Source of the DNA: an uncultured Chitinophagales bacterium
Lineage (GTDB): Bacteria; Bacteroidota; Rhodothermia; Balneolales; CAYWCV01
Direction: 5' to 3'
Length of the DNA stretch: 20,990 nt
Assembly: GCA_964640035.1 (NCBI GenBank)
Contig: CAZXGO010000009.1
Location: 2,413-23,402 of the forward strand
In this document: piece by piece, positions 2,713 to 20,990 of the stretch
Layout of the letters: every line of letters starts with the position of its first letter
Position numbering within the stretch: position 1 is the first letter of the stretch
Made by a program: the position numbers and the translations under genes
The notes under the pieces: generated by a model
What the model saw: only the letters and a program-made list of their open reading frames with translations
What the model was told of the DNA's origin: nothing
The model's database searches: none

Positions 2713-2733
2713 CATTCGGCGTGGCCCCACAGT

Positions 2734-4137: not shown

Positions 4138-5787
4138 TTGATCATGAATTTTATTGATCTGATTTATGCCGAAACTAAAGATGTGCGTAATAAACTTGTG
4201 CTGTATATGTTTCTATCCGGCATGTCGAACGCATTTATTTTATTTATCATAAATGGAGCTGCCGCAACGGTAACATACAGCGAAATAAACACGCGTTTGT
4301 TCTTGATGTTTATTGTGGTGATATCCATCTATATCCTGACACAACAGTTTATTTTTAAAAGTGCCGGCTACATCATAGATCAGATTATTCAAAAAATTCG
4401 ACTACGATTGGCTGAGAAAATTATTCAGAGAGCAGAATTAGTGGAGTTAGATGCTATTGGCAATTCGAGGATATACAATCACATGACCCATCAGATCAGT
4501 GAGGTATCTAATTCCTCTAATGAGATTACAGCAGCCGTTCAATCGTTTATTATGGTGTTATTCTCCATCATGTATTTGGGGACGCTATCTATTCAAGCTT
4601 TAATTGTGACCGTTGCTGTGGTTGCCATAGGAATGATTGTTTATTTGGGGATGGAGAAGAAGATTATCCCCTTTATAAATAAGCATAATGAGAGTGAAAT
4701 TCGCCTGTTTTCCTCCTTATCTCACCTGTTGGATGGCTTCAAAGAGATAAAATTGAGTCATGATAGAGGTTCTGATATCAGGGATGATATTGATGCAATT
4801 TCAAAAGAAGCACGAGACAATAGTATCACAACAAAAGTGATGTACTCGAATGCTTATATCTTTGCGCAGTCCTTTTTTTATGTGTTGATTGCGATTATGG
4901 TATTCATTTTACCTCGTTTTTTTGAAATATATACGGAGAGTGTCATTCAAATTACGGCGGTAATTCTTTTTATCATCGGACCCTTGTCGAGTGTTGTTGC
5001 GGGGATACCGGCATATACAAGATCTAACATTGCTATAAAAAATATTATGACGTTGGAGTCGGAGCTTGATCGGTTAAAAGAAGAGCCTCCTACGTTTAAT
5101 CCTCAAACTCACTCGAAATTTCTCGAATTTAAACGCATACAATTCAGAGGATTAGAGTTTGATTATTATGATCGCAACAATGAGAAAGTATTTAGTGTAG
5201 GTCCGATAGATTTAGAACTTAAAAAAGGGGAAACACTCTTTTTGATTGGTGGGAATGGCTCAGGTAAATCGACATTATTGAAACTTATAACTGGGCTATA
5301 TCGTCCGGCTCAAGGTGAAATTTTAGTTGATGAACACGTGATACATGGAGAATCGCTTCAAGAGTACCGGGAATTGTACTCCGTTATTTTTGCTGATTTC
5401 CACTTGTTTGAAAAGTTATACGGTATACGCAATTGGGAATCGGATGTTGTTGCAGATTTAATCAGAGAAATGCAATTAACGGATAAAACGGCCTTTGAAA
5501 ACGGGCAATTCACGAATATTAATCTTTCGACCGGTCAAAGGAAGCGTATTGCTATGATCGTAGCAAAATTAGAGCATAGAGAGATCTATGTATTTGATGA
5601 GTGGGCTGCAGACCAAGATCCTCAATTCAGAGAGTACTACTATTATCAGATCTTACCTGAGTTAAAAAAGGCAGGCAAGACTGTTATTGTGGTATCTCAC
5701 GATGATAGCAAGTATTTTGCGACAGCTGATCGTATTCTTAAAATGGATATGGGTAAACTGAGTGATATCCGTTTGAATAAACCTTAA
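4138..5787 (+). CDS. Fused TMD-NBD ABC exporter of the cyclic-peptide/siderophore-peptide export family (SyrD/PvdE/YojI-like).
   Basis: 549 aa. The N-terminal ~300 aa hold multiple hydrophobic helices. The C-terminal NBD has Walker A GGNGSGKST, signature LSTGQRKRIAMIVAKL and Walker B IYVFDEWAADQDP. The EWAADQDP context is characteristic of the SyrD-like cyclic peptide transporter family. TAA stop. It lies adjacent to the NRPS cluster. Confidence 0.85.
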   Translation: MIMNFIDLIYAETKDVRNKLVLYMFLSGMSNAFILFIINGAAATVTYSEINTRLFLMFIVVISIYILTQQFIFKSAGYIIDQIIQKIRLRLAEKIIQRAELVELDAIGNSRIYNHMTHQISEVSNSSNEITAAVQSFIMVLFSIMYLGTLSIQALIVTVAVVAIGMIVYLGMEKKIIPFINKHNESEIRLFSSLSHLLDGFKEIKLSHDRGSDIRDDIDAISKEARDNSITTKVMYSNAYIFAQSFFYVLIAIMVFILPRFFEIYTESVIQITAVILFIIGPLSSVVAGIPAYTRSNIAIKNIMTLESELDRLKEEPPTFNPQTHSKFLEFKRIQFRGLEFDYYDRNNEKVFSVGPIDLELKKGETLFLIGGNGSGKSTLLKLITGLYRPAQGEILVDEHVIHGESLQEYRELYSVIFADFHLFEKLYGIRNWESDVVADLIREMQLTDKTAFENGQFTNINLSTGQRKRIAMIVAKLEHREIYVFDEWAADQDPQFREYYYYQILPELKKAGKTVIVVSHDDSKYFATADRILKMDMGKLSDIRLNKP

Positions 5788-5849
5788 AAACTATACTATT
5801 GTTGGCTCATTTTTGGTCATTAAGCTAATCCAAGATAACCTCGATACCA

Positions 5850-6335
5850 TTGAGTATGAATGAAAAAGAGAAAACTCTATTAATTAGAATTTCCCAGGAA
5901 CTCTCGGACGACATTAGTCAATGGTCAGAAAAAGTAGGTAAGAACAAATCCTCTTTTGTCCGAAGTGCCATCGATCATTACATAAAATTGCTGGATAGTG
6001 AGAATCCCGAAGTACTTGAGTTGATCAAAGGAATTATCATTACCAAAATCGATAAAATTCAAAGCTCATATAACGAGGGTACCCTGATTGCCTTTACCAG
6101 TATTACACGGGTGAGTACCATGCTGAGTTGTAGTCTGTGTAAAGATGAGCAAGGATTAGAATACTTGGTGTATAATATTCCTCAACGGCATGGTGAGACA
6201 GTACTAGATGCGATTCAAAACTACGCGAGAAAGCTCTATGATATGTGGCGTGGTTTGCCTGAAGCTGAGAAGAAACACTTCTTAGTGGACTTACAAATGA
6301 GTCACGTTTATTTCAGTATTCAAGTTGAACCCTGA
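5850..6335 (+). CDS. Hypothetical protein with an N-terminal ribbon-helix-helix (CopG/Arc-like) DNA-binding motif and an uncharacterised ~110-aa C-terminal region. It is a candidate regulator.
   Basis: 161 aa. KTLLIRISQELSDDISQWSEKVGKNKSSFVRSAIDHYIKLL fits the beta-strand/helix pattern of RHH domains (S.FVR.AI..Y). It sits 62 bp downstream of the exporter and is probably co-transcribed. The C-terminal part has a CSLC pair and no recognisable family. Confidence 0.5.
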   Translation: MSMNEKEKTLLIRISQELSDDISQWSEKVGKNKSSFVRSAIDHYIKLLDSENPEVLELIKGIIITKIDKIQSSYNEGTLIAFTSITRVSTMLSCSLCKDEQGLEYLVYNIPQRHGETVLDAIQNYARKLYDMWRGLPEAEKKHFLVDLQMSHVYFSIQVEP

Positions 6336-6340
6336 GCGTT

Positions 6341-6352
6341 GTTGCAACAAGT
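6341..6352. repeat. Perfect 12-bp palindrome TTGTTGCAACAA 5 bp after the RHH-gene stop codon, in the 75-bp convergent intergenic gap.
   Basis: Read directly: gagcgTTGTTGCAACAAgta. It may be a protein-binding site or a weak bidirectional terminator element. No GC-rich stem or U-tract is present. Confidence 0.4.
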
Positions 6353-6410
6353 AATACTAAACGGTATTCCTGGAGACGGAGAAACTGATTGATTAGTTAA
6401 CAGTGTGTAC

Positions 6411-7232
6411 TTAGAAATTCAAAACAACGCCTACGGTTAGGGCTGTGTTCATTTTTTCATAATATGGGGCTAGATCTGGAATGAGAGGCTCTTCTTCATA
6501 TTTGATCTGGTATTGAACCATACCGCTTATGTGAGCATTAAATTGGTACATTGCTTTAAGATCCAGATCTACCCTGTAGATATGAGATTGATCAATACCA
6601 TGAATAAAAATGAGGGTTTCGCTCAAATTGACTTTGGGAATAGAGGTCAGATTAAAGCGTTGTTGTGCGTACACAATTGGATTTCCGAATTTTTCAGTAC
6701 CAAGATCTTCAGGCAACTGGGTGGTAGAAACCTGTTCGTATCCGAAAGCTACAAAGAGAAGCTTACCCAGATTTTTATGCTCCAGGTTATTGTAAATCAA
6801 TCCAGTGTAATAGGCAGATCTAAGTTTCAGATATTGAGCATCATTTTTCTCAGCTAAGACTCCACCTTCCCACTGTAGACTGGGATTGAGATCGTAAATG
6901 AGCTTAGGGTTGAAGGAAAAGGATCGGGTTCGTGATGCTGGATTTGATTGAACTCGTACTTTTTGATACGAAAGAGTACCGAAAGCACTCAATTGGGCAC
7001 GACCATCACGGATGAAGACCATTGGAGTACTTTTATGAAAATAAGTATCTACCTGGCCAGTGGCTATATAGGTACTGTACTCACCCTGAGCTTGAATACG
7101 AGTTCCCTTATGTTTCTCCGTTAGTTTAAGACTATTTGTCATCCACCATGCTGGTGTTGCATTTTGAGAAAAAGAATCAAATGGGATTGAAAGTGTGGCA
7201 ATACATGCCAGAACGATGAGGTAGCGTTTCAT
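6411..7232 (-). CDS. Probable outer-membrane beta-barrel protein, signal peptide-bearing and possibly DUF2490-like.
   Basis: 273 aa. The N-terminal signal peptide is MKRYLIVLACIATLSIPFDSFSQ. Aromatic and hydrophobic residues alternate throughout, as in beta-strands (LTVGVVLNF, LLFVAFGYEQV). The C-terminal residue is Phe (…GVVLNF), as in OMP barrels. TAA stop. Confidence 0.5.
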   Translation of the reverse strand: MKRYLIVLACIATLSIPFDSFSQNATPAWWMTNSLKLTEKHKGTRIQAQGEYSTYIATGQVDTYFHKSTPMVFIRDGRAQLSAFGTLSYQKVRVQSNPASRTRSFSFNPKLIYDLNPSLQWEGGVLAEKNDAQYLKLRSAYYTGLIYNNLEHKNLGKLLFVAFGYEQVSTTQLPEDLGTEKFGNPIVYAQQRFNLTSIPKVNLSETLIFIHGIDQSHIYRVDLDLKAMYQFNAHISGMVQYQIKYEEEPLIPDLAPYYEKMNTALTVGVVLNF

Positions 7233-7319
7233 ACAAATAAAGATACAGCGGTAGTTAAAACACTCTGTCTACACTACCCCTATATAAAGGCGTAGTGTGG
7301 ACGAGTAAAGATAGTGGGA

Positions 7320-7838
7320 TCAGTTGTCTGCTGGTTTTTCGACTTCTGTTTTAAGATCTTTCGCAGCTTTTTCACCACGGCTAAACATCATCTTAAAATT
7401 TTCGGTGAATTTAGCAGGATCGAGATCGAGAAAGCTACCACCGTTTTCGAAGTGGTTGATGAAGACATTACCCAATGCATACGCTGATGCCGATGCAAAA
7501 AAGGGCATAGTAATTGTACCTACAAGAGTACCGATCAGGGGTAGTGATTTAATACTACTTCCAAGAGTACCCTGAGCAAGAGTATTTGCCGTTACGCCTG
7601 AGAGAGCAGCAGAAATAGTATTTTTTGCAGTGTTTTCAGAAAATTTTACGCCGTACGCATCTGAAATTTCTGACACCATTTTCATTTGAACTCCGACAAT
7701 GGTAGCCAGATCAATAAGTGGGAATGGTATTAATCCGGCGCCACCAGACCATAACATGTAGCGTCGGGTGATGGCCATAGCCTGTTTTTCTTTGTCACTT
7801 GCTGGACGAGAAGCAGTTGCTGTTTTTTTAGTGGACAT
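7320..7838 (-). CDS. DUF697/YcjF-like small membrane-associated protein, paralog A.
   Basis: 172 aa. The core reads AITRRYMLWSGGAGLIPFPLIDLATIVGVQMKMVSEISDAYGV … ALGNVFINHFENGGSF. It is clearly homologous to the 10233-10733 ORF. WRYTLIAAGIGLIPSPTVNSVGVAVLELAMIDELAKNY matches its first block and VVGKLFKHHFETGGTF matches its last. The family assignment (DUF697) is from memory of the G..G.IP.P..D…iq..M…Ia.iYG pattern. Confidence 0.5.
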   Translation of the reverse strand: MSTKKTATASRPASDKEKQAMAITRRYMLWSGGAGLIPFPLIDLATIVGVQMKMVSEISDAYGVKFSENTAKNTISAALSGVTANTLAQGTLGSSIKSLPLIGTLVGTITMPFFASASAYALGNVFINHFENGGSFLDLDPAKFTENFKMMFSRGEKAAKDLKTEVEKPADN

Positions 7839-7893
7839 GGTACAATAGGGTTAGAACTCGAGGTTGGTGTAGCAATTCGTATAAACGTTATGA

Positions 7894-8052
7894 TTACTTG
7901 GTTTGCTTGGTTAGCGCCAAAATCAAGAACATGATCAGTGGTGTGGTCACAATGGCTCCTACAAAAGAGCCCAAAAAACCAAATCGCCTTTCGCTACCGT
8001 ATACTCCTACTAAAATGCAGGCGACTCCGTAAGCAATGTACCAAAGAATCAT
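7894..8052 (-). CDS. Unlisted 52-aa ORF encoding a two-TM mini-protein.
   Basis: ATG at 8052 to TAA at 7894-7896. It translates as MILWYIAYGVACILVGVYGSERRFGFLGSFVGAIVTTPLIMFLILALTKQTK. Two hydrophobic helices are separated by GSERRFG. It lies between the PPTase remnant and DUF697-like paralog A on the same strand. It is below the ORF-track size cut-off. Confidence 0.3.
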   Translation of the reverse strand: MILWYIAYGVACILVGVYGSERRFGFLGSFVGAIVTTPLIMFLILALTKQTK

Positions 8053-8267
8053 TGAAGCGTTCCTAACTAATTACTGGGGTTTTCTGTTGATTGGGATCGA
8101 GCAGACACTAGAAACGTGAAGTTTCAGCTTCGAGAATATACTATAATATTTGAATAGCAAGATTAATTCCTGATGAATAATTACACTTTTTTTTGTCTAA
8201 TTTTACTTTTTAAAAACAATTTGTATATATAAATATCCTATTTGTATAGTGTTTTTCAATAGTGATA

Positions 8268-8972
8268 TCACTTATTTATTAACATTATTTCTTTCATGAG
8301 TGGAATATTATTTGTTCGATTCGGCATGCACCAGGAAACAGCGTAGCTCATATTTTGATACCTTAATTGTTGATAAGAGCCAGTCCAGCAAACACCGTCT
8401 AAAATAAGTTCCCAGTTTGATGGATGATCATGAGGGAACTGAATTTCAAAATGCCGAGGGTCAAGCGACAAACCTAGTCCAGTTGCTTTTAAGGCTGCTT
8501 CTTTTGCAGACCACATCATAAAAAAAGCCTCTGTCTCGGTACAATAATCTTTTGAAACCCAGGCTGTGATCTGACCGATCTCATAGGGAGTATATAAACT
8601 TTTGAAATCGATCAGTGATCGGTTGTGATGAAGCTCAATGTCGATACCGCATGGTTCATCTCCGTGTATAAGTGCTATCAAATCGCCTGAATGGCTCCAA
8701 TTAAACTCAAACGAACATTGCTTGAGACTTGGTTTGCCATTCGAGTTGTACTCAAATTCTAATGGTTTCTCCAGGTACGTTCTAGACCCGGTTTCGCGCG
8801 TAATCAGCTAATGCCAAAGCAGAATACGAGCAGCGATAAACCGGTCTGCATCCTGCTTATGATAAAAACGAGACGCTTTTTGAAGATCTTCAGCACTCAA
8901 CATTTGAGAAACCAACTCGGCCGATGTCTGCTCAAGTATCTGTGTATAGGGCTGTACGATGAGTGCATTCAT
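8268..8972 (-). pseudogene. Sfp-type 4'-phosphopantetheinyl transferase reading frame (234 codons) interrupted by one in-frame TAG (amber) at codon 55 (plus-strand 8808-8810).
   Basis: From the ATG at 8972 it reads MNALIVQPYTQILEQTSAELVSQMLSAEDLQKASRFYHKQDADRFIAARILLWH*LITRETGSRTYLEKPLEFEYNSNGKPSLKQCSFEFNWSHSGDLIALIHGDEPCGIDIELHH…MMWSAKEAALKATGLGL…. All Sfp hallmarks are present and in the same frame: RFYHK.DA, GKP, FN(W)SHS, GIDIE and WSAKEA.LKA. The ORF track shows only the C-terminal 137 aa (TTG start at 8681). Other genes here stop with TAA or TGA and none needs TAG read as sense. Confidence 0.75.
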
Positions 8973-9000
8973 GGATAAAGCTGGTCTGTCGGTTTATATT

Positions 9001-10224
9001 TTACTGTTTTGAGTGGTCAAGATAACGCATCAGATTGAGCACAAACTTCCAATTGTGTGTAGCCATCTCGCTGTTCATTCCCATTCTTGTAGAACCATCG
9101 GCAGCGATTTGGGCTGTAAACATACCTGCCTCACCAAACATAGCCACTTTCCCATTTCCATGTTCGACTAAAGCTGCTTGTAGTTTTTGGGTAGCATCTA
9201 CCACAGGAACAACAAAAGCTGGTAATTCTTTCGTCGAAAGGAGAGACACCATTGTTTGTTGGTTTGAACTGTTAGAATCTTTACCAAAATAGGCATCCTG
9301 AGCTTCTGTGAGTACCGTAAAGGGTCCATCACCAAAGCGTAAAAGGGGATGCAATTTCATCCCAGGCAATTCTTCGGCGCTGAAACTATGACCTGTAAAC
9401 GTTGTGACATATGGGATGGTGGTATCATTCTGAGTTCCGGCATCACCCTTCAAAAAATCATTGATTTTGAGAGTTCCATCACCCTTTTGATATCCAGCTT
9501 CGGCCTGAGGATTGGGAGAGTTCCAAAAGCGTAAGGTATTAATTTCAGCTCCTAAGGCTACAAAGAGACCGCTCGCTTGGCTTACAATCTGTTGATTAAC
9601 GCTTGCATTATTTGGATCCGCTTTACCTTGCATAATTTGATCAACTACAGGAAGTTGAAAAAAGCGTTCTTTTAAGATGGTATAATATTCAGGGTCAAAA
9701 TTGTATCCATTATCAAGAGAGAATCCGAATCGAGCGGCTAAATCTGCCGTTGCACCTGGAAATGGATAATGATCGGCAATAAGTAAAAGAGATCCTCCCT
9801 TACCCACCCATTCAACGATAGCATCAATTTCTTCGCTGGTAAATGCACTTAAAATGGGGCTCACCCATTTTGGTTCTGGATGATTCGCATCATTAGCAGG
9901 ATTTGATATTACTAAAACCTTAACATCTTGCAGATTCTCGCGGGTAAATTTCTCAGTAAATGATTCAACCTTGAAGCCATCGTTTCGTAGCAGATCAGCG
10001 AATGGTTTAAAACGTTGATCTTTCGTATGAAAATTGTTGTGGGCTGCATCAATATAAATGACTGTTTCGCTCGAATAGGGCTTATATGGAACGGGAGGCA
10101 CATAGTTTTGGTCATACGATTGAACCTCAAGAGCCGGTGGTTTTGCACCCTGTGATTGTTGGGCAATGCTTGTCTGACTAAAAAGAAATGCTAGTAGGTA
10201 AAAAAGTATGATCACATTTTTCAT
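9001..10224 (-). CDS. Secreted, cysteine-free 407-aa protein of unknown function. It may have a DUF4350/ThuA-like (class I glutamine-amidotransferase-like) N-terminal fold. It lies in the same gene string as the NRPS.
   Basis: The signal peptide is MKNVIILFYLLAFLFSQTSIAQQ. The motifs VIYIDAAHNNFHT…VKVLVISNPAN…GGSLLLIADHYPFPG are reminiscent of the DUF4350/GldG N-terminal domain, a weak call made from memory. There is an 8-bp gap to the upstream DUF697-like gene. There are no Cys residues at all. Confidence 0.6.
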   Translation of the reverse strand: MKNVIILFYLLAFLFSQTSIAQQSQGAKPPALEVQSYDQNYVPPVPYKPYSSETVIYIDAAHNNFHTKDQRFKPFADLLRNDGFKVESFTEKFTRENLQDVKVLVISNPANDANHPEPKWVSPILSAFTSEEIDAIVEWVGKGGSLLLIADHYPFPGATADLAARFGFSLDNGYNFDPEYYTILKERFFQLPVVDQIMQGKADPNNASVNQQIVSQASGLFVALGAEINTLRFWNSPNPQAEAGYQKGDGTLKINDFLKGDAGTQNDTTIPYVTTFTGHSFSAEELPGMKLHPLLRFGDGPFTVLTEAQDAYFGKDSNSSNQQTMVSLLSTKELPAFVVPVVDATQKLQAALVEHGNGKVAMFGEAGMFTAQIAADGSTRMGMNSEMATHNWKFVLNLMRYLDHSKQ

Positions 10225-10232
10225 GGTGAGTT

Positions 10233-10733
10233 TTAGCTTGTGGTTGAGGATGCGATTCGGATGGGTAGTTCTTTTTTTCCGTTTTCGAGCTCCGTCCGGA
10301 ACATTTTTCTGAGGGTACTGTTATCCTTGCTCAAAAATGTTCCACCTGTTTCGAAGTGGTGTTTAAAGAGTTTGCCGACAACGTAGACAGACAAGGCTCC
10401 TGTGATGGAATAAATACTCGATGCAACAAAATGTCCTACGAAGGGAATGCTGGAGAGCGATGATTTAGATTTTAAAGCCAGATATACAGGTCCCAAACTT
10501 CCTACCAGTGAAATAAACGCCTTGGCTGCGGCTAATTTCGTTGGAAAGGGGAAAGAATAATTCTTGGCAAGTTCATCAATCATTGCTAACTCGAGTACCG
10601 CAACACCGACCGAGTTAACCGTGGGTGATGGTATGAGTCCAATACCAGCAGCAATTAGGGTATAACGCCATACAATGGCCTCACCCGATGCAATCGGATC
10701 TGTACTTTGATCTATATTCTTGGATTCATTCAT
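10233..10733 (-). CDS. DUF697/YcjF-like small membrane-associated protein, paralog B.
   Basis: 166 aa and homologous to 7320-7838 (see that entry). It lies 81 bp downstream of the type II thioesterase and 8 bp upstream of the secreted protein. Confidence 0.5.
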   Translation of the reverse strand: MNESKNIDQSTDPIASGEAIVWRYTLIAAGIGLIPSPTVNSVGVAVLELAMIDELAKNYSFPFPTKLAAAKAFISLVGSLGPVYLALKSKSSLSSIPFVGHFVASSIYSITGALSVYVVGKLFKHHFETGGTFLSKDNSTLRKMFRTELENGKKELPIRIASSTTS

Positions 10734-10814
10734 TTAGCGTTGATGATTTATCCAAAATAGTTAAATACAATAGCGGACATTTATCAAAGGAAAATAGTAC
10801 ACTTTTTTATCTAA

Positions 10815-11537
10815 TTATTTTAGCAATGTTTTTCGGATGATAGTGCCAACATGATTGATTTCATCAAAAAAGGCAAAATGACCCCCTTTTTGTGGATTAA
10901 ACTCTATAGAGTACTTTGTTTCATTTTGCCATGGAATTAATGCATGAATGGGGGTTTCCACATCCAAGGTACCATAAAAGACAGTGATGGGAATATCAAG
11001 GGGTTCGGATGGATTCTGGTAGCGATAGCATTCCAAGGCTTGAATGTCAGCTCGAACAATAGGCTCAAAGAAATTCATCAATTCTTGATGTTCCTTAAGT
11101 TCAGGTGGAAGCGCTCCAAGACTTTCTATGTAGGCCCAGAAATCCTCCGTAGCGGCTTTGTAGTGTGGAATATCAAGATGTGCCACTTTTGGCACTGATG
11201 GTGCACCATGAGCACTACAGAATATGTGCTCAACCCTGCCGGGCGTATCTGACTCCGACAAACGAGTGATCAGATAGGCAAGTAACGCTCCCATGCTATG
11301 ACCAAGTAAAGCAAATGATCGTTCGTTAGCATAGTGTTTAATTTGTTCATACATATCTAAAGCTATGGATTCAATATCCGTTAGCAGTGGGTCTTTCAAT
11401 CGTTTTCCTCGCCCAGGTGGTTCCAAGGCTACAAGGTCAATCTCATCACCCAAAAGCGGCTTAAGATTTCTGTAGACTAGAGAATTACCGCCTGCATAGG
11501 GTATAGCAAACAGTACTTTTGGATCATTTATCGTCAT
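10815..11537 (-). CDS. Type II (editing) thioesterase, alpha/beta-hydrolase, GrsT/TycF-like.
   Basis: 240 aa. The nucleophile elbow is GHSMGALLAY. The N-terminal LFAIPYAGGNSLVYRNL matches the TEII pattern, and a C-terminal His lies in GGHFAF. It sits 15 bp downstream of the NRPS stop. Confidence 0.9.
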   Translation of the reverse strand: MTINDPKVLFAIPYAGGNSLVYRNLKPLLGDEIDLVALEPPGRGKRLKDPLLTDIESIALDMYEQIKHYANERSFALLGHSMGALLAYLITRLSESDTPGRVEHIFCSAHGAPSVPKVAHLDIPHYKAATEDFWAYIESLGALPPELKEHQELMNFFEPIVRADIQALECYRYQNPSEPLDIPITVFYGTLDVETPIHALIPWQNETKYSIEFNPQKGGHFAFFDEINHVGTIIRKTLLK

Positions 11538-11552
11538 AAAACCTTCACTGAA

Positions 11553-14500
11553 TCAATCGTTAGATATAATTTGGGCAATGATGTCTGCAAGCTGAGAAAC
11601 ATGGGGTTCATTAAGCATGGTGAGGTGATCACCTGGTGTGTGATGAATATGAAGGTGGTGTTGAATCCATTCAGACCATCCTAAATCAGGAGTGGAACGG
11701 AGTTCATGTACCCTTGAATCATTCAGATGTTCAGGCTGTAATTCAAAGGAGCGTATCAGATGAATATCCAGGTTTTCTAATTTCGCATGTGGATGGTATT
11801 CCATCTGAAGATTACTCCGATATACCTGGATAAAGCCTTCCAATTGAATGAGCGGTGTTTCAGGTGGAAAGATTTCAGCCTTAATTAGAGCCTCCAGTAA
11901 CTTTTGAGTAGGACTAGATCCTTGATCTAATTGTTCATCATCGATATTGACCCACTTTCCAAATTGATGTGAGGCAATTTCGGCAATTTGACGTGTCCAT
12001 TTTTCCATGGACCAGTCTTTACCCGTTGGTTCAAACCAATGAGGTGCTGACGAATCCAATATGATAGCCTTGTGTTTCAAGTGCACATCTTGAGCAGAAG
12101 TGCGTTCAAGTTGACGTGCCATTTCATATGCTAGGAGTCCGCCGAATGAATGACCGACAAGAATCAAGCTGCTGTTGGGTATTGCATCACTAATGGCATC
12201 CAGATAGTGACTGGCAAGCTGATCCATGGTAGTACATACGGCAGTTTTTCCATCAAGACCTGGAGGCTGTACACCATAAACTGGAATATCTAGACCTAGT
12301 GTTGATGCAAGTGCTTGCATATAGAGAATATTTCCACCGGCACCAGGAATAAGTACGATGGCTTTTTCGTCGACGGTTCCTTTTCGAAGCGGAATAATCG
12401 TCGGCCAGGCCGTAGAACCCTCGGATGACGTTCTAAGATTTCGGGTAAAACTTTCAAGAGTGGGATAATGGAATAAACTGACGAGTGGAAGCTGGATTCC
12501 AAACTCAGCATGCACCAATGCCATCATCCGAACAGCTAAAAGGGAGTGTCCGCCAAGCTCAAAAAAATGATGTTGAGGGCTAATGTGATTGACACCCAAA
12601 ACTGCTTTCCAAATGGATGCCATCCTGTATTCGAAAATATCTCGGGCTTCCAGTCGGTCAGCATGTGCATGTTCGGTAAGATTAAGCTTTCTATTACTTA
12701 ATGCTTTTCGATCCAACTTCCCGTTGGGTGTCATTGGGAAAGAGTCCACTATAATAAAATGAGCTGGAATCATGTACTCAGGAAGAAGAGGCCTGAGATA
12801 GGTTGCCAACGTTTTCCCTTCAACAGTCTTTTTTGATCCAGGGATAATGTATGCCACCAATTTTCCCTCTGATCCACTCCCATAAAGAACAACAGCTGAT
12901 AATGATATTCCTGGATGATTACTTAAATGGTATTCTATTTCACCCAATTCTATTCTAAATCCACGTAATTTTACCTGTTGATCACTTCTTCCCAGATACA
13001 TGATCGATCCATCGGGTCGAAACTGGGCTAAATCGCCGGTATTGTACATTTTGGGACTCGCTACTTCTCCTTTCGAGCTCAGACCATTGATATCTGAGAT
13101 CGGCTTGCTGTAGGGGTCTGAGATAAATCGCTCCTGAGTTAGATCATCCCGGTTCAAGTATCCATCCGCAACCCCTATTCCACCGATATATAAGGTACCA
13201 GTTATTCCAGCTGGTAGTGCCTGGAGTTGATCATCGAGAACATATACAAACGTATTGTCGATGGGGCGACCAATTAAAACAGGAGATGATGCGTCAAGAG
13301 TATGTTTATCAATACGTGAGATCGTTGAGTAAACCGTAGTTTCAGTGGGCCCATATAAGTTCCAAACGGAGGCACTTTTTGAAACAAGCTCTTTTGCCAA
13401 GTGGTACGAAAGTGCCTCTCCTCCAGTGAAAATCTTCAGCTTGTCGTTTCCATGCCAGGATTGTTCTACCATCATATTCCAGGTGGCTGGAGTGGCCTGC
13501 ATGATGGTGATATCACCTTTTAAAATACGCTCCATGAGGGCTTGCGGGTCTTTTGCTACTGTTTCTGGAGCCAACTCAAGGATTCCACCACAACTGAGGA
13601 TACCCCAAATTTCCAGCACAGCAATATCAAATGATATCGTTGTCAAGGCCAGGAGTTTATCATTATGATCCATCCCAGGTTCACGATGGATAGATTGGAT
13701 AAAGTTCAAGACGCCTCGATGAGGTATAATGACCCCTTTGGGTCGACCAGTACTCCCAGAAGTGAAGATGACATATGCTATATCGCTTGGCCGAATAGGA
13801 ATGTTCGATTCCTCAGCATTGAGACTTTCCGGATCGATTTCAATGTTATCTACAAGTACCTGGGCCGAGGTAGAAGGTATGCGATCAGCTAAGGTTGACT
13901 CTGTAAGGACCAATTCGATCTCGGCATCTTCAAAAATCATTTCTATCCGTTGCGATGGATAATTCGGGTCAAGAGGGACATAGGCATGGCCTGCTTTCCA
14001 AATTCCAAGCATGGAGCTTATCAAATAAGACTTCCTCTCCAGTGCAACCGCGATAAGTGATCCAGGCTTTAGCTTTAGGTTTCGAATGAAAGAAGCAATT
14101 TTATTGGATTCGTCCCTCAATTCAGCATAGGTCATTCGCCGATTTATGGCATTTAATGCAATGTGATCGCCTCGTACGTGTGCCTGATTATCGATCAAAT
14201 CTACCAAAGACACCGCATCATCCAGTGGCCTGGAGGTTTGGTTCCAATTTGCCAATGTCATCATGGCATGGTCTTCACTCTGAAGAGCAATATGATCGAT
14301 TGTTCGACGATCATCCCATGAAAGTTCTGAAAGAATATGCTTGAACTGTTCTGACATCTGATGGATACGCCATTCTTGAAATAAGTCGGTGCTGTACTCC
14401 AAATATCCAGCAAGAGTATCTCCTTCTTCTGCAAAAAGAAGAGACAGATCATATTTAGAGATGGTGTTTTTATGTTCAAGAAGATCAGAATCAAGACCCT

Positions 14501-17500
14501 GAAATGATGGTGGGTTCATGCGTTGTGTTTGCATGCTTAGCATCACCTGAAATAAAGGCGAGTATGCCGTATTTCGTTCTGGTTGCAAGATTTCAACAAG
14601 TTGTTCAAACGATATGTCCTGATGGCCATACGCCTCAAGGGCTGTGGCCTTTATTTGTTTTAAATATTGGACAACGCTTTGCTTAGGATCAAGATTAAGT
14701 CGTAACACTTGTGTATTGACAAAAAAACCAATGAGTGGCTCAAAAGCGGCCTTTTTTCTATTTGCAAATGGCGCTCCAATGACGATATCCTCTTGACCAG
14801 AATACTTATGAAGCATGATCCCAAAAACGGCAGTAAGTATCATGAACGGGGTCATCTTGGATACCTCTGCGAGTTTTTGCACTTTTTGACTTAGATCCTG
14901 CCCCAGTTCAAAACGATGTGTAGCACCTTGATACGTTTTTACAGGAGGACGCTGAAAATCGGTAGGTAATTCCAGCAAAGCAGGAATATTGGCCAGTTTA
15001 TCTTTCCAATATTCAGCTTGTCGCTGAATTTCTCCAGTGTTGATCAACTCATCTTGCCATTTCGCATAATCTGCGTATTGGCTTTCAAGTACTGGTAGAC
15101 CATGATCCTCACCATCGATGAACGCTTGATAGAAATATTCCAATTCCCGGGAAATGAGTCCAAGTGACCACCCATCCGACACAATATGGTGCATGTTAAT
15201 GGTAAACAGGTACACATCATCCTCAAGTCGGACAACTGCTGACCGAAAAAGTGGTCCTGAACGCAAATCAAAAGGTGTATTACTCAGATTCTGAATCCAT
15301 AATTCAAGATGCTCCTGTTTGGTTGAATCCTTCAGCAATCGAATATCAACCACACTGAGTGGGTTGGAGTGTGGAGTAATCTTTGTTTGTAGCTCAGCAT
15401 CGACTGATACGATCGTGCTTCGAAGCACCTCATGACGTTGTTGTAAACGATCGACGGCATACTTAAGGGCATCCAGGTTAAGCTCACCATACATTTTGAT
15501 GGTGATAGGCATATTATAGGTTGGTTTACCGCCATCAAGTTGTTCGAAAAACCACAGTCGCTTCTGCGCTAAGGACAGAGGTCTAGTGTTGCTTGATTCG
15601 TAGCCTGTTGAGATCGGGTGTGTCTGACTTGGCCGAACTTGGTCATTAACCGTATTTGAAGAGATGACCCCTGGTTTGCTTGTTGAAGCATTGGAACCCG
15701 ATGAGTCAAAAGCATATCCCAGTTGACGTGCTACATCGACTGTGAGATCACCTAATATGTCGACCGAATAATGCTCTTTCCAACGATCTGAAGTATTAGC
15801 ATCTATTTTTTTATGCGAATGAAATTTAACATCTCCTAACATTCGGGATTCGGCATAAAGGCCATCCGTCATGCGACGTTTTTTCTCCTGATCATTAAAC
15901 AATGCAAGCATTTCTGCATCAAAGGGTATGCCAATATGTGCGCACAAACGCTCCATCTCTTTTTTCGGATGATTCGTCATATCCTCAAAAGAGATACTGG
16001 TTTGTCTATTTTGGGGAATAGTTGATAAAAAATGAGTGATATTTTCGTGACTTTGAAACCAAATAAGTTCAGCCAGCTCACGTGATTGAAACGTGTGAGG
16101 ATATCTAAAGAAGATCTGCTGCAATTTGGCTTCAACAAAGGAATGGATCATTCCCAATGGATGGCGATGCAGGTGGATGTAGAACGCATCCTCAAAATTG
16201 TTTTCTATTCTTTCCAAGATGGATGGATGAAGAACATACGATGGTGATTTGTCGACCAGGATTTGTTCATCAACCGATTTCTGGAGTTCATTGTAGAATT
16301 CTTTTACGCTGAGATGAGCCTCTTCATACCGATTCATCGCCAATTTGGCTTCCTCAGCATTCAGATCTTTAGCTTCCATGAGAGCCCGGATGGTCCCCTC
16401 TAACCAAAAGCTATCCCGACCGGTATAGGTATCTGCACGTTCCTTCAGGGTATTAAAAGGCATTAACTCTAGTTCGGGTGGAGCAAAGAGCATCGGATGC
16501 CCACCTAATAATACCCTAAGTAAGGTAGTACCAGAACGTGGAGGTGCGAGCACAAAAATGGCACGTTTATTTTTGGACTGTACCTTCTCCTTATATGATG
16601 ATAGACCTGGTATGAGATCTTTGAATGTTGAGATATCATTTGGAGATATACGTGTTATCTCTTTCTTTGAAGAAGAGCCTAAATCATCAAATTGAGCATA
16701 AATTTCAGGATAATGCTCTGTGATATAGATCGCTAGTTCTGCTATCGTTGGAGCTTCGAACAAGGCAACGACATAGAAAATACACCCAAAGTGTTCTTGA
16801 ATCCGGTTTGAGAAGATGGCCGCTTTGATGGAGTCGCCACCCAGTTCGAAAAAGTTATCATGAATACTTAGCTTCGGAAGTCGCAGAAGTTCGGACCAGA
16901 GATTGGCTATATATTCTTCAAGTGTATTTCTGGGTTCTACTAGGGGAGTGACTGAAGAATGACTTTCTCTATCTGGGTCAGGTAAAGCCTTTAGGTCAAC
17001 CTTACCATTATGCGTTAATGGCATTTCTGATAGAGTGACCATAGCTGAGGGCACCATATACTCAGGCAGTTTGATACTAAGATGTTCTCTTAGCGCTTTA
17101 AGCCTTTCGTTCGGATTCACTTCGGGTTGAAAGACAAGATATCCTGCAAGTTCATTACCTGAAGTGGATTGTATAACTTTCACCACGGCAGTGCTTACAC
17201 CGTTGAAGGATTTTATTAGGCTTTCAATTTCCCCGATTTCGATACGAAATCCTCGAATCTTGACTTGTTGGTCAATACGTCCAAGGTACTGTAGTCTACC
17301 ATCCAATCGTCTTCTGGCTAAATCTCCACTACGGTAATATCTGGCTATAGGAAGTCCGGCAGACATCTGCGTTGAGATGAACCGTTGCTCATTGAGCTCG
17401 GGGCGTTTCAAATATCCCTTTGCTACTCCGGCACCTCCAACAACAATCTCGCCCGGAATACCAAAAGGGACTAATTGGCCATAGTCATCACACAAATCCA

Positions 17501-20150
17501 AGCTTAGGTCCGGAATAGGATTTCCGATGATGCTGCTGCCATTTCGGACATCCTGCTCGGTGATTTCATGCCAGGTAACATGAACCGTAGTTTCAGTAAT
17601 GCCATACATGTTTACCAATCGAGGTGAGGAATACCCATGACGTTGAAACCATCCATCCAGACTTTTTATATCAAGCGCCTCCCCTCCGAAAATAACCCAT
17701 CTGAGCATGGATAATGAATTTCCTGAGCGTCGATCCACTTCAGCTAATTGGGCAAAAGCTGAAGGAGTTTGGTTGAGTACCGATACGTTCTCTTCAACCA
17801 ATAGCTTGTAAAATGCATCTGTTTGACGTGCTATTTCTTTTGGTACCAAAACCAAGGTACCCCCATATAGGAGTGCGCCAAATATCTCCCAAACGGAAAA
17901 ATCAAAGGCATACGAGTGGAAAAGCGTCCAAATATCAGTATGGTCAAATCTATAATACGATTCAGTACATCGAAACAATCGGATGACATTAGCATGTGAC
18001 ACCTCTACACCCTTAGGCAAACCTGTTGACCCAGAGGTATAAATGATGTAGGCTGTGTCTTCCGGAATCCCCACATTAATGGCTGGTTGGATCCTGTTAT
18101 CGTGCTCACTAAGTTCATTTAGAATCTCAGGGACGCAGATATTAGTTTGTCCGCTAGAGGGTAATCCTGATCTGGATACCTCGTCAGTGAGTACGATCTT
18201 CAGCTCCGCGTCTTCGATCATAAAGGACAACCGATCAATAGGATAGACAGGATCCAGTGGAACATAGGAAGCTCCAACCTTTAAAATGGCCCATATCGAA
18301 GCAACTAAATCGGGACTACGCTCCATGAATACCCCAACCCGATGCTGCCTTCCTATTCCATGATGGCTTAAAACTTCAGCCAGGATAGTTGAGCGTTGAT
18401 GCAACCATTGGTAGGTGTAGGAATTTCCATCGTAGCGCAGCGCAGTGTGTTGTGAATACTTTTCTGCAGCATGCGCTAAGAGCTCTTGTAATGTTTCATT
18501 AACTGGGTAGGTTTGTCCAGCACCTCTGAGTGATAGCAGTTCCTGAAGCTCTAATTTAGTGGTGAAGGGAATCTGGTGAACCGGTACTTCAGGTTGGGAG
18601 ATGAGTCCTTTTAGTAAAGCAATAAAATGACCCGACATTCGCTGAATCGTTTCTCGATCAAAAAGTTCAGTGTTATATCGAAACCTTCCGTGAATTTGTG
18701 ATCCAGACTCCTCCATAGATAAGACTAGATCGAAGGGAGCTTTGCTGTTTTCGGGCTCCATCTCTATAAGTTCAAGGCCACCTGAGCGAAACTCAGATGA
18801 TGGGGCATTTTGCAATGCAAATAAGACCTGAAACAACGGAGTATGAGTGAGCGATCTGGTAACATTTAGAGCCTGAAGAAGCTCATCAAAAGGCACTTCT
18901 CCATGTTCAAAAGCTTGAATCGACATCGCCCGTACACGTTGTAAAAGCTGAAGAAAATCGGGTGATTCGGTTAAATCAACCCTCATGGGAAGAGTGTTTA
19001 GAAAGAGTCCAACAAGTGGCTCCGTATCAGGATGGGGTCGTACAGAAATGGGAGAGCCAATGAGTATATCATCCTGACGGCTGTAGCGAGATAGTAGTAC
19101 GGCAAACACAGACAAGAGCACCATGTAAGGTGTCGTAGAAGTTTTAGAAGCCAACAACCGTAGGGTTTTAGTCTCTGATGCCTCAAGAGTAAAAGCACAC
19201 GTATTCCCGTGAAAAGACTGCATTCGAGGTCTGGGTCGATCAGTAGGCAACTCCAGAAAGTGTGGCGCGCCTGATAGAACTCTTTTCCAGTGATGAATGC
19301 TACGCTGAATACGGTATGCATCCATATAACAGCGCTCCCATAGAGCAAACTGACCATAATGAATATCGATGGGCTTCAATGGGTTTGATTTACCCGTCAT
19401 CTTTTCCTCGTACAGCGTAGATACCTCCGCTACGAGATTTCCCAGTGACCATCCATCCGCACAAATATGATGAAGGGTTAAAATGAGTATATGCCGAAGA
19501 TCGCTACATCGGATCACACCTACCCGAATGAGTGGATCTCCCTTTGTAAGATTAAAGGGCCGCTCCCCCTCTTCCAGAATAATCGTTTGGATACGCTTGG
19601 AATCTTCACCAGATTCAGACAGCTCATAGATGGAGAATGGGACTTCACCACCTTGATCAGGCCATTGTCTGGGTTCGTTATTTTTAAGCCCAAATTTTGT
19701 TGAAAGTCCGGTATGGCGATGAATTAAATCCTGAAAAACCGCCCTCAACACCTCCAGATTCAATGAACCCTTGGCTTCAAAAACAATTGGTAACATGTTG
19801 TATATCGGCGAGTTACCACCTGCCAATTGATCCAAAAACCAAAAACGCTGTTGAGCAAAACTTAAGGGGTATCCATCTTGATCTCTATGATGATCAGGAT
19901 ACAAGGTATTAAGCGACCTAAAAATGGGCTGTTCAAGGAGGTCCTGAGATTTTTTTTCGTGTTGAAGAATCCTTATAAGCTCTGCTTTATGACGTCTCAT
20001 CGCGTCAACTAAAGCCTCATCCATACTTCCTTTAGGAGCAGAATACCTTAGTTGATCATCTTCTAGGTAGAGCCTTATGCCTTTGGCTTGAACCTCAAAG
20101 AGAAGATCTAGTGCATTGGAATCGAATGCTTGGTAGCTTTCATTCAACAT
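11553..20150 (-). CDS. Bimodular non-ribosomal peptide synthetase with an N-terminal beta-hairpin docking domain and an embedded sulfotransferase. The order is dock-C-A-PCP-ST-C-A-PCP-TE.
   Basis: 2865 aa. The motifs are as follows. C1 has [10 protein letters not shown] and HHICADGW (aa 227). A1 has [63 protein letters not shown] and NGKVD. PCP1 has FFELGGDSI (Ser ~1107). ST has [21 protein letters not shown] (aa ~1198). C2 has [11 protein letters not shown] and MHHIVSDGW (aa 1654). A2 has [63 protein letters not shown] and NGKLD. PCP2 has FFELGGHSL (Ser ~2536). TE has GHSFGG (Ser ~2668). TGA stop. The start is 14 bp downstream of the upstream KR-carrier gene stop. Confidence 0.95.
   Translation of the reverse strand: [2865 protein letters not shown]
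11556..12383 (-). other. Terminal type I thioesterase (chain-release) domain.
   Basis: [15 protein letters not shown]…[15 protein letters not shown] (Ser codon at 12147-12149). The C-terminal [11 protein letters not shown] holds the catalytic His region. Confidence 0.8.
12441..12638 (-). other. Peptidyl carrier protein PCP2 (Ser codon at 12543-12545).
   Basis: [20 protein letters not shown]. Confidence 0.8.
12711..14207 (-). other. Adenylation domain A2 (approx. aa 1982-2480). The FDIAVLE signature is tentatively of the small/Gly type.
   Basis: A-domain cores are as listed for the parent CDS. Asp-Ile-Leu at the first three Stachelhaus positions resembles the Gly code DILQLGLIWK. The remaining code positions were not reliably extracted. 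Confidence 0.55.
14301..15593 (-). other. Condensation domain C2 (approx. aa 1520-1950).
   Basis: [14 protein letters not shown] and [12 protein letters not shown] (His codons at 15186-15191). Confidence 0.8.
15699..16583 (-). other. Embedded PAPS-dependent sulfotransferase domain of the CurM/olefin-synthase ST type (approx. aa 1190-1484), inserted between PCP1 and C2.
   Basis: [38 protein letters not shown] matches CurM ST …[30 protein letters not shown], the 5'-PSB loop. [20 protein letters not shown] matches [23 protein letters not shown] matches IHLVRHPYAVIESF, the 3'-PB region. The CurM strings are recalled from memory. The domain runs from ~KNKRAIF to …[11 protein letters not shown]. 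Confidence 0.8.
16731..16928 (-). other. Peptidyl carrier protein PCP1 (Ser codon at 16830-16832).
   Basis: [25 protein letters not shown]. Confidence 0.8.
17001..18488 (-). other. Adenylation domain A1 (approx. aa 555-1050). The FDFSVWE / [12 protein letters not shown] signature is tentatively of the Thr (hydroxy-amino-acid) type.
   Basis: A3, A4, A5, A8 and A10 cores are as listed for the parent CDS. The specificity guess comes from Asp-Phe-Trp at the first three Stachelhaus positions and the YGITETTVH motif, recalled as typical of Thr-activating domains. No predictor was run. Confidence 0.6.
18561..19898 (-). other. Condensation domain C1 (approx. aa 85-530).
   Basis: C1 motif [10 protein letters not shown] and C3 HHICADGWS. 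Confidence 0.8.
19956..20150 (-). other. NRPS N-terminal TubC-type beta-hairpin docking domain (aa 1-~65).
   Basis: [62 protein letters not shown] matches the betaHD pattern …L…gv.Lw.egd.LryrAPkG.l…l…l..hK.ell..L. Confidence 0.7.
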
Positions 20151-20164
20151 GAGACGTATTGAGC

Positions 20165-20990
20165 TTAAATGAATCCTTCATCTCGATCTTCACTTTGATT
20201 AGCGTTAGATAAGCTATCAATGTCAACCGCCATTTCGGCCACTGTTGGTTGTTCAAACAAACGGGAAAGCGTCAAATCGGCTTTAAAATGTCGGCGAATC
20301 AGCGCCACAAGTTGTGTGAGTAATAAAGAATTGCCTCCGAGTTCAAAGAAGCTGTCGTGAATACCAATTCCCTGAATTCCGAGGAGCTGCTCCCACAATT
20401 CTGTAAGTTTCTTTTGAGTAGTATTGGATGGCGCCGTATACAATCCTAAATGTTCGGGGCGGGGATGTGCATCCAGAACTTGAATTTGTAGCTCGGCCTG
20501 TTTCGATTTGCTCACCCACTGGGCTATGCGTGCATTGAGATCACCACTGGATATCACCAATCGTTCTACAGAAGGCATTTTTAGCAGATATTCAAAGGCC
20601 TGTATACCTTCAGAGGGCGTCATTCCCAATTCGGCTGCAGATGAGTTCGTATTGCCAGCTAAGGCATCAAGATCATCAAATATCCAGCCTTCCCAGTTGA
20701 TCGAGATCCATTTACCGGGTTGTTGCTGATTTAATATGGAAATTTTTGCATCGACAAGCGCATTCGTTGCAGCATATGCCGAAAAACCCAGTCCACCCAA
20801 AATGGGTGACAAGGAAGAGCAAACCAAGCAAAAGTCGAAGTCTATCTGAGCAAGTGCTTTTTCGATAACATCAAGGCCCTGAACTTTAGGGATAAACTGC
20901 CGGGAATTTTTCTCTTGTCCGTGCTCAGTCAAAGACTCGCTGATCGTGACAAAGGAATCCTCACCCACGATCAGCGAGTCTTTGACTGAG
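20165..20990 (-). CDS. C-terminal part of the upstream assembly-line protein (5' end off window). It has a ketoreductase domain, a PCP-like carrier protein and an acidic C-terminal docking tail.
   Basis: KR catalytic region CSSLSPILGGLGFSAYAATNALVDA…WISINWEGW. Carrier IHDSFFELGGNSLLLTQLVALIRRHFKADLTLSRLFEQPTVAEMA. C-terminus …NANQSEDRDEGFI, then TAA. The frame stays open to the window edge. The ORF-track start (GTG at 20968) is internal and the true N-terminus lies beyond 20990. Confidence 0.85.
   Translation of the reverse strand, partial: SVKDSLIVGEDSFVTISESLTEHGQEKNSRQFIPKVQGLDVIEKALAQIDFDFCLVCSSLSPILGGLGFSAYAATNALVDAKISILNQQQPGKWISINWEGWIFDDLDALAGNTNSSAAELGMTPSEGIQAFEYLLKMPSVERLVISSGDLNARIAQWVSKSKQAELQIQVLDAHPRPEHLGLYTAPSNTTQKKLTELWEQLLGIQGIGIHDSFFELGGNSLLLTQLVALIRRHFKADLTLSRLFEQPTVAEMAVDIDSLSNANQSEDRDEGFI
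20924..20990. repeat. Perfect 25-bp inverted repeat with a 17-nt spacer that ends exactly at the window boundary, inside the KR-coding sequence. 20924-20948 reads CTCAGTCAAAGACTCGCTGATCGTG and 20966-20990 reads CACGATCAGCGAGTCTTTGACTGAG.
   Basis: Verified by reverse-complementing base by base. The repeat could extend further outward past the window end. Confidence 0.8.

Follow-up and report, generated by a model that had tools for sequence, protein, structure and literature searches.

The DNA analysed here is a stretch of 20,990 nucleotides (nt) from an uncultured Chitinophagales bacterium (GenBank assembly GCA_964640035.1, contig CAZXGO010000009.1), hereafter called the window at its full length. 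It carries the end of a polyketide synthase (PKS), a terminating nonribosomal peptide synthetase (NRPS) with an in-line sulfotransferase domain (ST), a type II thioesterase, a phosphopantetheinyl transferase (PPTase) gene interrupted by a stop codon, an ABC exporter and a set of envelope genes (Table 1). Positions 1.8–21.0 kb of the window quite likely belong to a hybrid PKS/NRPS cluster of at least about 48 kb that is functional and as yet uncharacterised, and make up its downstream portion. Genes were called from a listing of open reading frames (ORFs) together with Pfam and NCBIfam scans of the window, and every gene named in the original prediction, which had been made from the letters of the DNA alone, was present at or near its predicted position.

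Two groups of sequences were used for comparison. Contigs L071, L072, L073, L081 and L082 stem from the same species and share approximately 96% nt identity with the window, while L069, L070, L075, L077, L078 and L079 are six orthologous metagenome loci with NRPS identities of 48–64%. L069 and L070 were found in a metagenome scan with the ketoreductase (KR)-acyl carrier protein (ACP) region as query, whereas the other four were reached via a homolog search with the 407 amino acid (aa) protein of the window. Some of the orthologous loci end early at contig ends, and conservation was judged as far as each contig reaches.

Table 1. Features of the window with position, strand and supporting evidence
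Feature	Position	Strand	Evidence and remarks
CarbopepD_reg_2 + DUF5686 protein, partial, outside the conserved block	2-1477	-	Pfam (E 3.5e-38); absent from orthologous loci
Band_7/SPFH membrane protein, at the left limit of the conserved block	1792-2712	+	PF01145 1.3e-25; 67-82% aa identity in orthologs
Membrane-anchored PotD-like solute-binding protein (SBP)	2734-3918	-	SBP_bac_8 9.4e-22; PotD PRK09501 6.5e-50, below cut-off
ABC exporter, fused transmembrane and nucleotide-binding domains (TMD-NBD), SyrD-like cyclic-peptide export family	4138-5787	+	TIGR01194; gene callers start at 4144
161-aa lineage-restricted protein ("159-aa gene" of the orthologs)	5850-6335	+	no Pfam/NCBIfam family
DUF481 outer-membrane-type protein, signal peptide, 273 aa	6411-7232	-	PF04338 1.8e-8; 39-68% aa identity in orthologs
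DUF697 paralog a, 172 aa	7320-7838	-	PF05128 1.4e-10; 69-81% aa identity in orthologous loci
52-aa predicted membrane protein	7894-8052	-	no Pfam family; 52-86% aa identity, same position, in L075 and L077-L079
Sfp-type PPTase frame, 234 codons, TAG at codon 55 (complement of 8808-8810)	8268-8972	-	ACPS 1.4e-14
Secreted 407-aa protein	9001-10224	-	GIFT/ThuA-like (class I glutamine-amidotransferase-like) fold predicted
DUF697 paralog b, 166 aa	10233-10733	-	PF05128 9e-9
Type II (editing) thioesterase, 240 aa	10815-11537	-	Pfam Thioesterase PF00975 9.2e-32
Terminating bimodular NRPS, 2865 aa, TubC_N dock-C1-A1(Thr)-T1-ST-C2-A2(Gly-like)-T2-TE	11553-20150	-	Pfam
In-line sulfotransferase domain (ST), aa 1197-1467, between T1 and C2	15750-16562	-	Sulfotransfer_3 1.2e-29
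A1 adenylation domain, aa ~559-1050, Thr code	17001-18476	-	Stachelhaus code DFWNIGMVHK
KR (partial) + ACP, end of the last PKS module	20165-20990	-	Pfam KR 5.9e-13, PP-binding 1.7e-16; runs off the right end

The assembly line visible in the window comprises two condensation (C), two adenylation (A) and two carrier (T) domains and a terminal thioesterase (TE) domain, preceded by the KR-ACP end of a PKS, which agrees with the hybrid nature proposed for the locus. KR-ACP lies directly upstream of the TubC_N docking domain of the NRPS. The core motifs of the NRPS are intact, with HHxxxDG in both C domains, GGxS in the carriers and GHSFG in the TE, and the first carrier domain, T1, occupies aa 1079–1143. 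All six orthologous loci keep the complete order of docking domain, C, A(Thr), T, ST, C, A(Gly-like), T and TE. The type II thioesterase features a GHSMG motif and adjoins the NRPS in all of them, with 49–65% aa identity.

For the substrate codes, the A domains were aligned to a fragment of GrsA-PheA, which reproduced DAWTIAAICK and K517. The code of A1, DFWNIGMVHK, is the canonical Thr code, the code-to-substrate assignments being those of Stachelhaus 1999. It is identical or nearly identical in eight of eight orthologs, which deviate by V at position 299, by I at position 330 or by a single gap in the alignment. The code of A2 is DILQFGLVYK, which agrees with the Gly code DILQLGLIWK at seven of ten positions, and the codes of its orthologs are likewise Gly-like. 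The expectation that the line ends with two amino acids and carries a sulfotransferase was thus borne out.

Divergence between the NRPS of the window and that of L071 is patchy, with 15–27 mismatches per 150 nt in a few spots (aa ~950–1100, ~1450–1500 and ~1850–2100, i.e. T1, the ST-C2 linker and the C2/A2 junction) compared to 1–5 elsewhere. The synonymous divergence (dS) of T1 is 0.43, compared to about 0.1. This pattern suggests recombination between strains or between carrier domains.

The upstream modules, which had been expected outside the window, were seen on contigs of the same species. The order of genes begins there with a PKS of 1859 aa, the start of which was not reached (ketosynthase (KS)-acyltransferase (AT)-dehydratase (DH)-KR and onwards), and continues with a PKS of 2199 aa (KS-AT-DH-C-methyltransferase (cMT)-KR-ACP), a KS-AT protein of 1200 aa, a 3-hydroxyacyl-CoA dehydrogenase, an ACP, an acyl-CoA dehydrogenase, an FkbH protein, a 404-aa protein, an ACP-aminotransferase-C-A-T protein and an AT-less KS-KR-ACP protein of 1243 aa, after which the NRPS of the window follows. 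These genes include at least three PKS modules with an AT in cis. Close variants of the KS-AT, the 3-hydroxyacyl-CoA dehydrogenase and the 1778-aa aminotransferase protein, falling into the same 90%-identity clusters, are recorded on the source contig of the window itself. The start of the cluster was not reached, and the window holds its last ~19 kb.

The partial KR-ACP at the right end of the window corresponds to the last 274 aa of the 1243-aa protein, with 258 of 274 aa identical, and the KS of that protein carries the catalytic residues Cys, His and His. Since the species has an intact KS-KR-ACP with this catalytic set, what the window shows of the KR-carrier gene is the tail of a complete module and not a truncated remnant, the outcome that would have spoken against the original prediction.

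FkbH is a separate protein encoded about 11–12 kb upstream of the NRPS (TIGR01686, 289 bits, cut-off 146.65). Together with the adjoining 3-hydroxyacyl-CoA dehydrogenase, free ACP and acyl-CoA dehydrogenase it is a predicted hydroxymalonyl- or methoxymalonyl-ACP-type cassette. The same kinds of genes adjoin each other in FkbGHIJK and in ZmaD-E-G-N of zwittermicin, and the AT-less elongating KS module could take such an extender unit. The cassette differs from its Fkb and Zma counterparts in that neither an O-methyltransferase nor a recognisable trans-acting AT was seen in the region. The gene between those for FkbH and the ACP-aminotransferase protein (L072:13337-14551, + strand) occupies a position where a trans-acting acyltransferase for the AT-less KS-KR-ACP might be expected; its 404-aa product matched no family of Pfam or NCBIfam at a threshold as loose as E = 1.

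The 1778-aa protein has an ACP-Aminotran_3-C-A-T arrangement like that of MycA and ItuA (mycosubtilin, iturin) and of McyE, in which a beta-keto chain is converted to a beta-amino acid and coupled to an amino acid. Its A domain has the Asn-like code DATSVGEVCK (DATKIGEVGK in L069). Compared to these systems, the KS-AT is a separate protein of 1200 aa, with six genes inserted between it and the aminotransferase protein, and the downstream logic of AT-less KS-KR-ACP, Thr-ST, Gly-like module and TE is unrelated to that of iturins and microcystins. An N-acyl-D-Asn prodrug motif with a ClbP-like peptidase was considered and rejected, as Pfam revealed no epimerisation domain after the Asn module and no S12 peptidase was found.

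The co-occurrence of the window's genes is not due to chance, as their order is repeated in the six orthologous metagenome loci, which are independent of each other. Wherever orthologous contigs extend to the genes between 4138 and the right end of the window, these are inherited along with the synthetase, so that their predicted association with the pathway was supported. Between strains of the species, the ratio of non-synonymous to synonymous substitution rates (dN/dS) is 0.04–0.15 for all window genes, 0.04–0.11 for the accessory genes and 0.148 for the NRPS in comparison with a strain of 96% nt identity. L082 is 95.9% identical to the window over 20.2 kb. Rfam and tRNA scans yielded no RNA elements, counts of promoters and terminators were not above those of shuffled sequences, and the only intergenic repeats found were short and at chance level.

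The left border of the cluster had been predicted at 3.9–4.1 kb, with the PotD-like and Band_7 (prohibitin) genes counted as ordinary chromosomal neighbours. We consider this placement doubtful. Both genes belong to common housekeeping-type families, a permease or ATPase partner for the SBP is not present, and all orthologous loci come from related organisms, which makes a vertically inherited neighbourhood possible. However, the SBP is conserved with the cluster in four loci (L077, L078, L079 and the same-species L082), and Band_7 adjoins the block in three (L077, L079 and L082). In L077 and L078 the SBP is located between the 159-aa gene and the ABC exporter and thus inside the supposed cluster. 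Beyond Band_7 the flanks differ by lineage, with metallophosphoesterase/DoxX, 143-aa/SDR/MscS and DUF5686/PorZ genes in the three cases. Several accessory proteins are also more conserved than the synthetase: identities to L079 and L077 are 83 and 69% for the ABC exporter, 82 and 67% for Band_7 and 81 and 72% for DUF697 paralog a, compared to 64 and 49% for the NRPS. Composition gave no boundary signal at 4 kb either, as neither G + C content nor tetranucleotide frequencies set positions 1–3900 apart from 4100–20990; the tetranucleotide correlation of 1–3900 with the rest (0.86) falls within the range of internal chunks (0.80–0.91).

Because the SBP and Band_7 are conserved with the cluster and the flanks differ only beyond Band_7, the conserved block is placed as ending after Band_7, near 1.7–1.8 kb of the window. 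It weighs against this placement that the conservation of the two genes could reflect an inherited chromosomal neighbourhood instead of a function, and that the SBP and the SPFH protein act in the pathway is inferred from co-inheritance only.

Three side observations concern this end of the window. The G + C content dips to 0.35–0.37 at 3500–6000 (the PotD/ABC intergenic region and the ABC gene), compared to 0.40–0.45 elsewhere, and no matching change in tetranucleotide composition was seen. Within 433–1514, several ORFs of 50–148 aa on both strands (e.g. 800–1246, + strand) share sequence with the DUF5686 gene, either in a different frame or on the opposite strand, and look spurious; ORF 800–1246, the one scanned, had no family match. 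In L082 (L082:18806-21224) a DUF5686 gene of 790 aa is followed by a PorZ-like gene of the type IX secretion system (T9SS), which is consistent with a host of the FCB group.

Family hits and gene calls confirmed the exporter, the outer-membrane protein, the DUF697 paralogs, the secreted protein and the type II thioesterase as predicted. The ABC exporter scores 331.8 bits against TIGR01194 (cut-off 286.2) over residues 21–541 and shares 69–83% aa identity with its orthologs; it is complete in L077 and L079, while L078 holds only its first 73 residues before the contig end. As in SyrD systems, a fused TMD-NBD half-transporter above the cut-off of TIGR01194 thus lies beside an NRPS cluster. Different from these, it is joined here by a conserved set of two DUF697 proteins, DUF481, SPFH, the PotD-like SBP and the GIFT-like secreted protein, and we know of no description of such an accessory envelope set for SyrD-type systems.

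Up to their contig ends, the four longer orthologous loci share the order (DUF697b)-407 aa-PPTase-52 aa-DUF697a with the window, and L077, L078 and L079 also carry DUF481 and the 159-aa gene. DUF697 paralog b is present in L079, L075, L078, L069 and L070 and absent in L077. The 407-aa protein is found between paralog b and the PPTase in L075 and L077–L079, the four loci that reach it. Its AlphaFold2 (AF2) model has a mean confidence (pLDDT) of 89.3, and the best match in a Foldseek search of the Protein Data Bank (PDB) was the GIFT domain of IFT52 (E 2.5e-9, TMt 0.74), followed by ThuA-like proteins. The predicted model points to a GIFT/ThuA-like fold, from which no catalytic assignment follows. 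Relatives of this protein come, by their NCBI names, from Balneolaceae and from Bacteroidetes metagenome-assembled genomes, and some have a T9SS tail; the names belong to homologs of 55–57% identity, which weakens the taxonomic reading built on them. With the nearby PorZ gene, they suggest that the host is a marine bacterium of the FCB group and probably Balneolaceae-like.

The 161-aa protein is 52–69% identical to its orthologs. Its family is very narrow: among 1.84 billion proteins it amounts to only 3 representative clusters. Two cysteines in its C-terminal half, C94 and C97, are invariant. The N-terminus, LLIRISQELSDDISQWSEKVGKNKSSFVRSAIDHYI, fits a strand-helix-helix pattern as in ribbon-helix-helix (RHH) proteins and is kept in the orthologs. 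For the RHH fold, no match was obtained in Pfam or NCBIfam, a PDB profile search gave nothing significant and a single-sequence AF2 model was unusable (pLDDT 47). The RHH assignment is a guess from this pattern.

The ST domain of the NRPS matches the ST of CurM from curacin A biosynthesis (4gbm, E 2.3e-60) and an olefin synthase (OLS) ST (4gox, E 7.4e-52). These two enzymes act on 3-hydroxyacyl-ACP and turn the hydroxyl into a sulfate that serves as leaving group. The loop for the sulfate donor PAPS (PPRSGTTLLR) and the motif PPELELMPF of the window align with SPRSGSTLLR and PPELHLLPF of CurM, and the PPEL motif holds the proposed catalytic Glu (Glu60 of CurM). At a dN/dS of 0.06 the domain is under strong purifying selection. 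As in CurM and OLS, it directly follows a carrier domain, and the substrate proposed below would likewise be carrier-bound with a hydroxyl beta to the thioester. In CurM and OLS, however, the order is ACP-ST-TE and the preceding module is a KS-AT-KR PKS, whereas the ST of the window follows an NRPS Thr module and is itself followed by C-A-T-TE instead of a TE directly, so that decarboxylative off-loading is not expected. The residue after the catalytic Glu-Leu also differs, being His in CurM and Glu in the window, as in most uncharacterised relatives. This position (His62 of CurM) was tried as a marker of ST subtypes and discarded, since most relatives have Glu there, whether their ST precedes a TE or a C domain.

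Many uncharacterised ST-TE proteins from metagenomes are 45–55% identical to the ST of the window and have PPELELL in place of the PPELHLL of CurM and OLS. When the ST region served as query for a homolog search, all proteins obtained were shorter than 700 aa and even the identical long NRPS was missed, so this search is no gauge of how rare the architecture is. A scan of GTDB with T1-ST-C2 found only distant modules of 35–42% identity, and the 8-residue exact patterns that it used could miss 50% identical orthologs. C-A-T-ST modules occur in unrelated phyla, namely at L015:6830-11401 (Ardenticatenaceae, where the protein ends right after the ST), at L004:4183-11202 (Bacterium BMS3Abin04) and in L007 and L017 (Calditrichales). 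The A codes before the ST were readable in two of these distant modules, DLYNMSVIWK (Cys-like) in L015 and DAEDIGTVVK (possibly Lys/Orn-like) in L004, and are not those of Thr. Residues of this kind have nucleophilic side chains, which would be consistent with sulfonation of the side chain of the module's own residue.

A mechanism may be proposed from these features. C1 would condense the ACP-bound polyketide/aminoacyl chain with the Thr loaded on T1, where the CurM-type ST, using PAPS, would sulfonate the beta-hydroxyl of the threonyl residue. We regard this acceptor as moderately well favoured, because the Thr hydroxyl lies beta to the thioester as in the substrate of CurM and because the two distant modules select residues with nucleophilic side chains. 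In the next step the sulfate might act as a leaving group to give dehydrobutyrine, which we put forward as a tentative outcome, slightly preferred over a retained O-sulfo-Thr. C2 would then add the Gly-like residue, the TE would release the product, and the ABC exporter and envelope proteins would handle export or self-protection. Under this scheme, O-sulfo-threonine would be an activated carrier-bound intermediate that either undergoes elimination on the assembly line to dehydrobutyrine or closes a ring by displacement, an idea that we offer as speculative.

Some points count against this proposal. The sequence does not reveal which group the ST sulfonates. The intermediate on T1 also carries the hydroxyl derived from the KR and possibly one derived from hydroxymalonate. 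C2, for its part, looks like a C domain of ordinary elongation (such as that of TycC, with those of teixobactin Txo1/Txo2 as the closest in the PDB) and is distant from the dehydrating C domain of the AmbE type, which neither supports nor excludes a dehydro donor.

In the first alternative the sulfate is retained and the product is a peptide-polyketide with O-sulfo-threonine next to a C-terminal Gly-like residue. An ST that is intact and constrained and an ordinary-looking C2 would suit such a product. In-line STs that yield stable sulfate esters are known from OciA (cyanopeptolin-1138/oscillapeptin E) and DysB (dysinosin), where the ST within the NRPS acts on a building block that is still bound to its carrier and has yet to enter the next condensation (PMC2533009, PMC6520454). 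The ST of the window is likewise located inside an NRPS, between a carrier and the next C domain. Compared by architecture, the acceptor in OciA and DysB is a glyceric acid starter loaded by FkbH (PMC2533009, PMC6520454), whereas the ST of the window follows an elongating C-A(Thr)-T module and the FkbH protein is encoded by a gene of its own. CurM and OLS, which among solved structures are closest to the ST, further argue for sulfate as a leaving group, the literature searched yielded no nonribosomal peptide with a sulfated Thr, and on chemical grounds a beta-sulfate beside a thioester-activated alpha-proton should eliminate easily. A retained sulfate is therefore regarded as one of the less probable outcomes.

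The ST could also act on a polyketide hydroxyl in the fashion of CurM, either on the beta-hydroxyl left by the preceding KR or on an alpha-hydroxyl derived from hydroxymalonyl. The 3-hydroxyacyl-ACP substrates of CurM and OLS, to which homology was computed, would fit this, as would the preceding KS-KR-ACP module, the FkbH cassette and the codes before the ST in the distant C-A-T-ST modules, which are not those of hydroxy amino acids. We nevertheless judge this unlikely. The ST is placed after T1 of the Thr module and not after the ACP of the PKS, eight orthologs strictly retain the Thr code along with the ST, and on T1 the hydroxyl beta to the thioester is that of Thr. The residues of the distant modules, Cys-like and possibly Lys/Orn-like, also bear nucleophilic side chains. 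Sulfonation of the Thr beta-hydroxyl is hence kept as the preferred reading.

The PPTase had been described as broken. An in-frame TAG does interrupt it, but it is a single frame with this one TAG and no frameshift, and the frame is under purifying selection. The same TAG is found in the window, L002 and L082, and gene calls are split in two further assemblies; the presence of a premature TAG in every assembly of the species seen weighs against a functional cluster. In the orthologs of other lineages the PPTase is intact (222–233 aa) and the column of the TAG is variable (L/Y/V/E), with the nearest relative having GAG, one G-to-T change away. The motifs FNxSHS, GIDIE and W(S/T)AKE align with those of four intact orthologs. 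The PPTase of L082 (L082:11253-11957) has the same TAG and no other lesion, and it differs from that of the window closest to the TAG at 14 nt upstream and 5 nt downstream. Over the whole frame the two strains show 24.3 synonymous and 15.7 non-synonymous differences (dN/dS 0.15, P = 7e-8 versus neutrality), and codons 56–97 alone show 6.5 and 3.5, respectively (P = 0.007). These codons precede the first canonical restart codon, and a restart there would delete the FNWSHSG motif.

Judged from these substitutions, the frame appears to have stayed under selection after the TAG arose. This constraint suggests read-through, reinitiation at CTG56/ATT57 or an enzyme made of two pieces rather than a dead gene, and the PPTase is probably still expressed in functional form. 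That the conserved TAG is read through or decoded as sense in this lineage is, as a novel reading, a remote prospect. TAG serves as stop codon in 0 of 21 called genes of the window, L071, L081 and L082 (14 TAA, 7 TGA), compared to 4 of 14 genes in L079 and 3 of 10 in L078; this sample is small (P about 0.03 at a background of 15%), too small to conclude anything. Wholesale reassignment of TAG was rejected as unlikely, since about 50 kb of coding sequence contain no more than this single in-frame TAG. A cluster that is silent or decaying in this species through a PPTase pseudogene, as the TAG at codon 55 in several assemblies and the intact genes of other lineages might indicate, is highly improbable, given the constraint on the NRPS and accessory genes at a strain dS of about 0.12–0.19 and on the PPTase frame itself, codons 56–97 included, the intact catalytic motifs of the enzyme and the possibility that a further PPTase, encoded at another place in the genome, supplies the cluster as well.

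Most components of the locus are familiar, namely the CurM-type ST, the MycA/McyE-like aminotransferase module, the FkbH cassette, the SyrD-like exporter, the type II thioesterase and the Sfp-type PPTase. In the literature searched, none of the characterised clusters had a C-A(Thr)-T-ST-C module, in-line NRPS sulfotransferases were reported only for glyceric acid starters, and no PKS/NRPS clusters or products were reported from Balneolaceae. The novelty consists in a well-supported orphan cluster family with one predicted enzymatic arrangement and a conserved, unexplained accessory set, and not in a new kind of system.

Taken together, the locus exemplifies a conserved arrangement in which an elongation module of an NRPS has a CurM-type ST built in after a Thr-specific A domain, and for which no biochemical study turned up. 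If O-sulfo-threonine is indeed an activated intermediate, nonribosomal synthesis would have a route to dehydroamino acids that uses sulfate as the leaving group, distinct from the known dehydration catalysed by C domains and analogous to phosphorylation or glutamylation in lanthipeptide dehydration. The TAG-interrupted and yet constrained PPTase lends itself, as a small and clean system from an uncultured bacterium, to the study of read-through at stop codons or of enzymes that function in split form. The orphan cluster family is represented in at least seven lineages of a Balneolaceae-like group in marine metagenomes, and the approximately ten envelope genes co-inherited with it, among them two DUF697 genes and those for the DUF481, GIFT-like and SPFH proteins and the orphan SBP, give a handle on the functions of these families.

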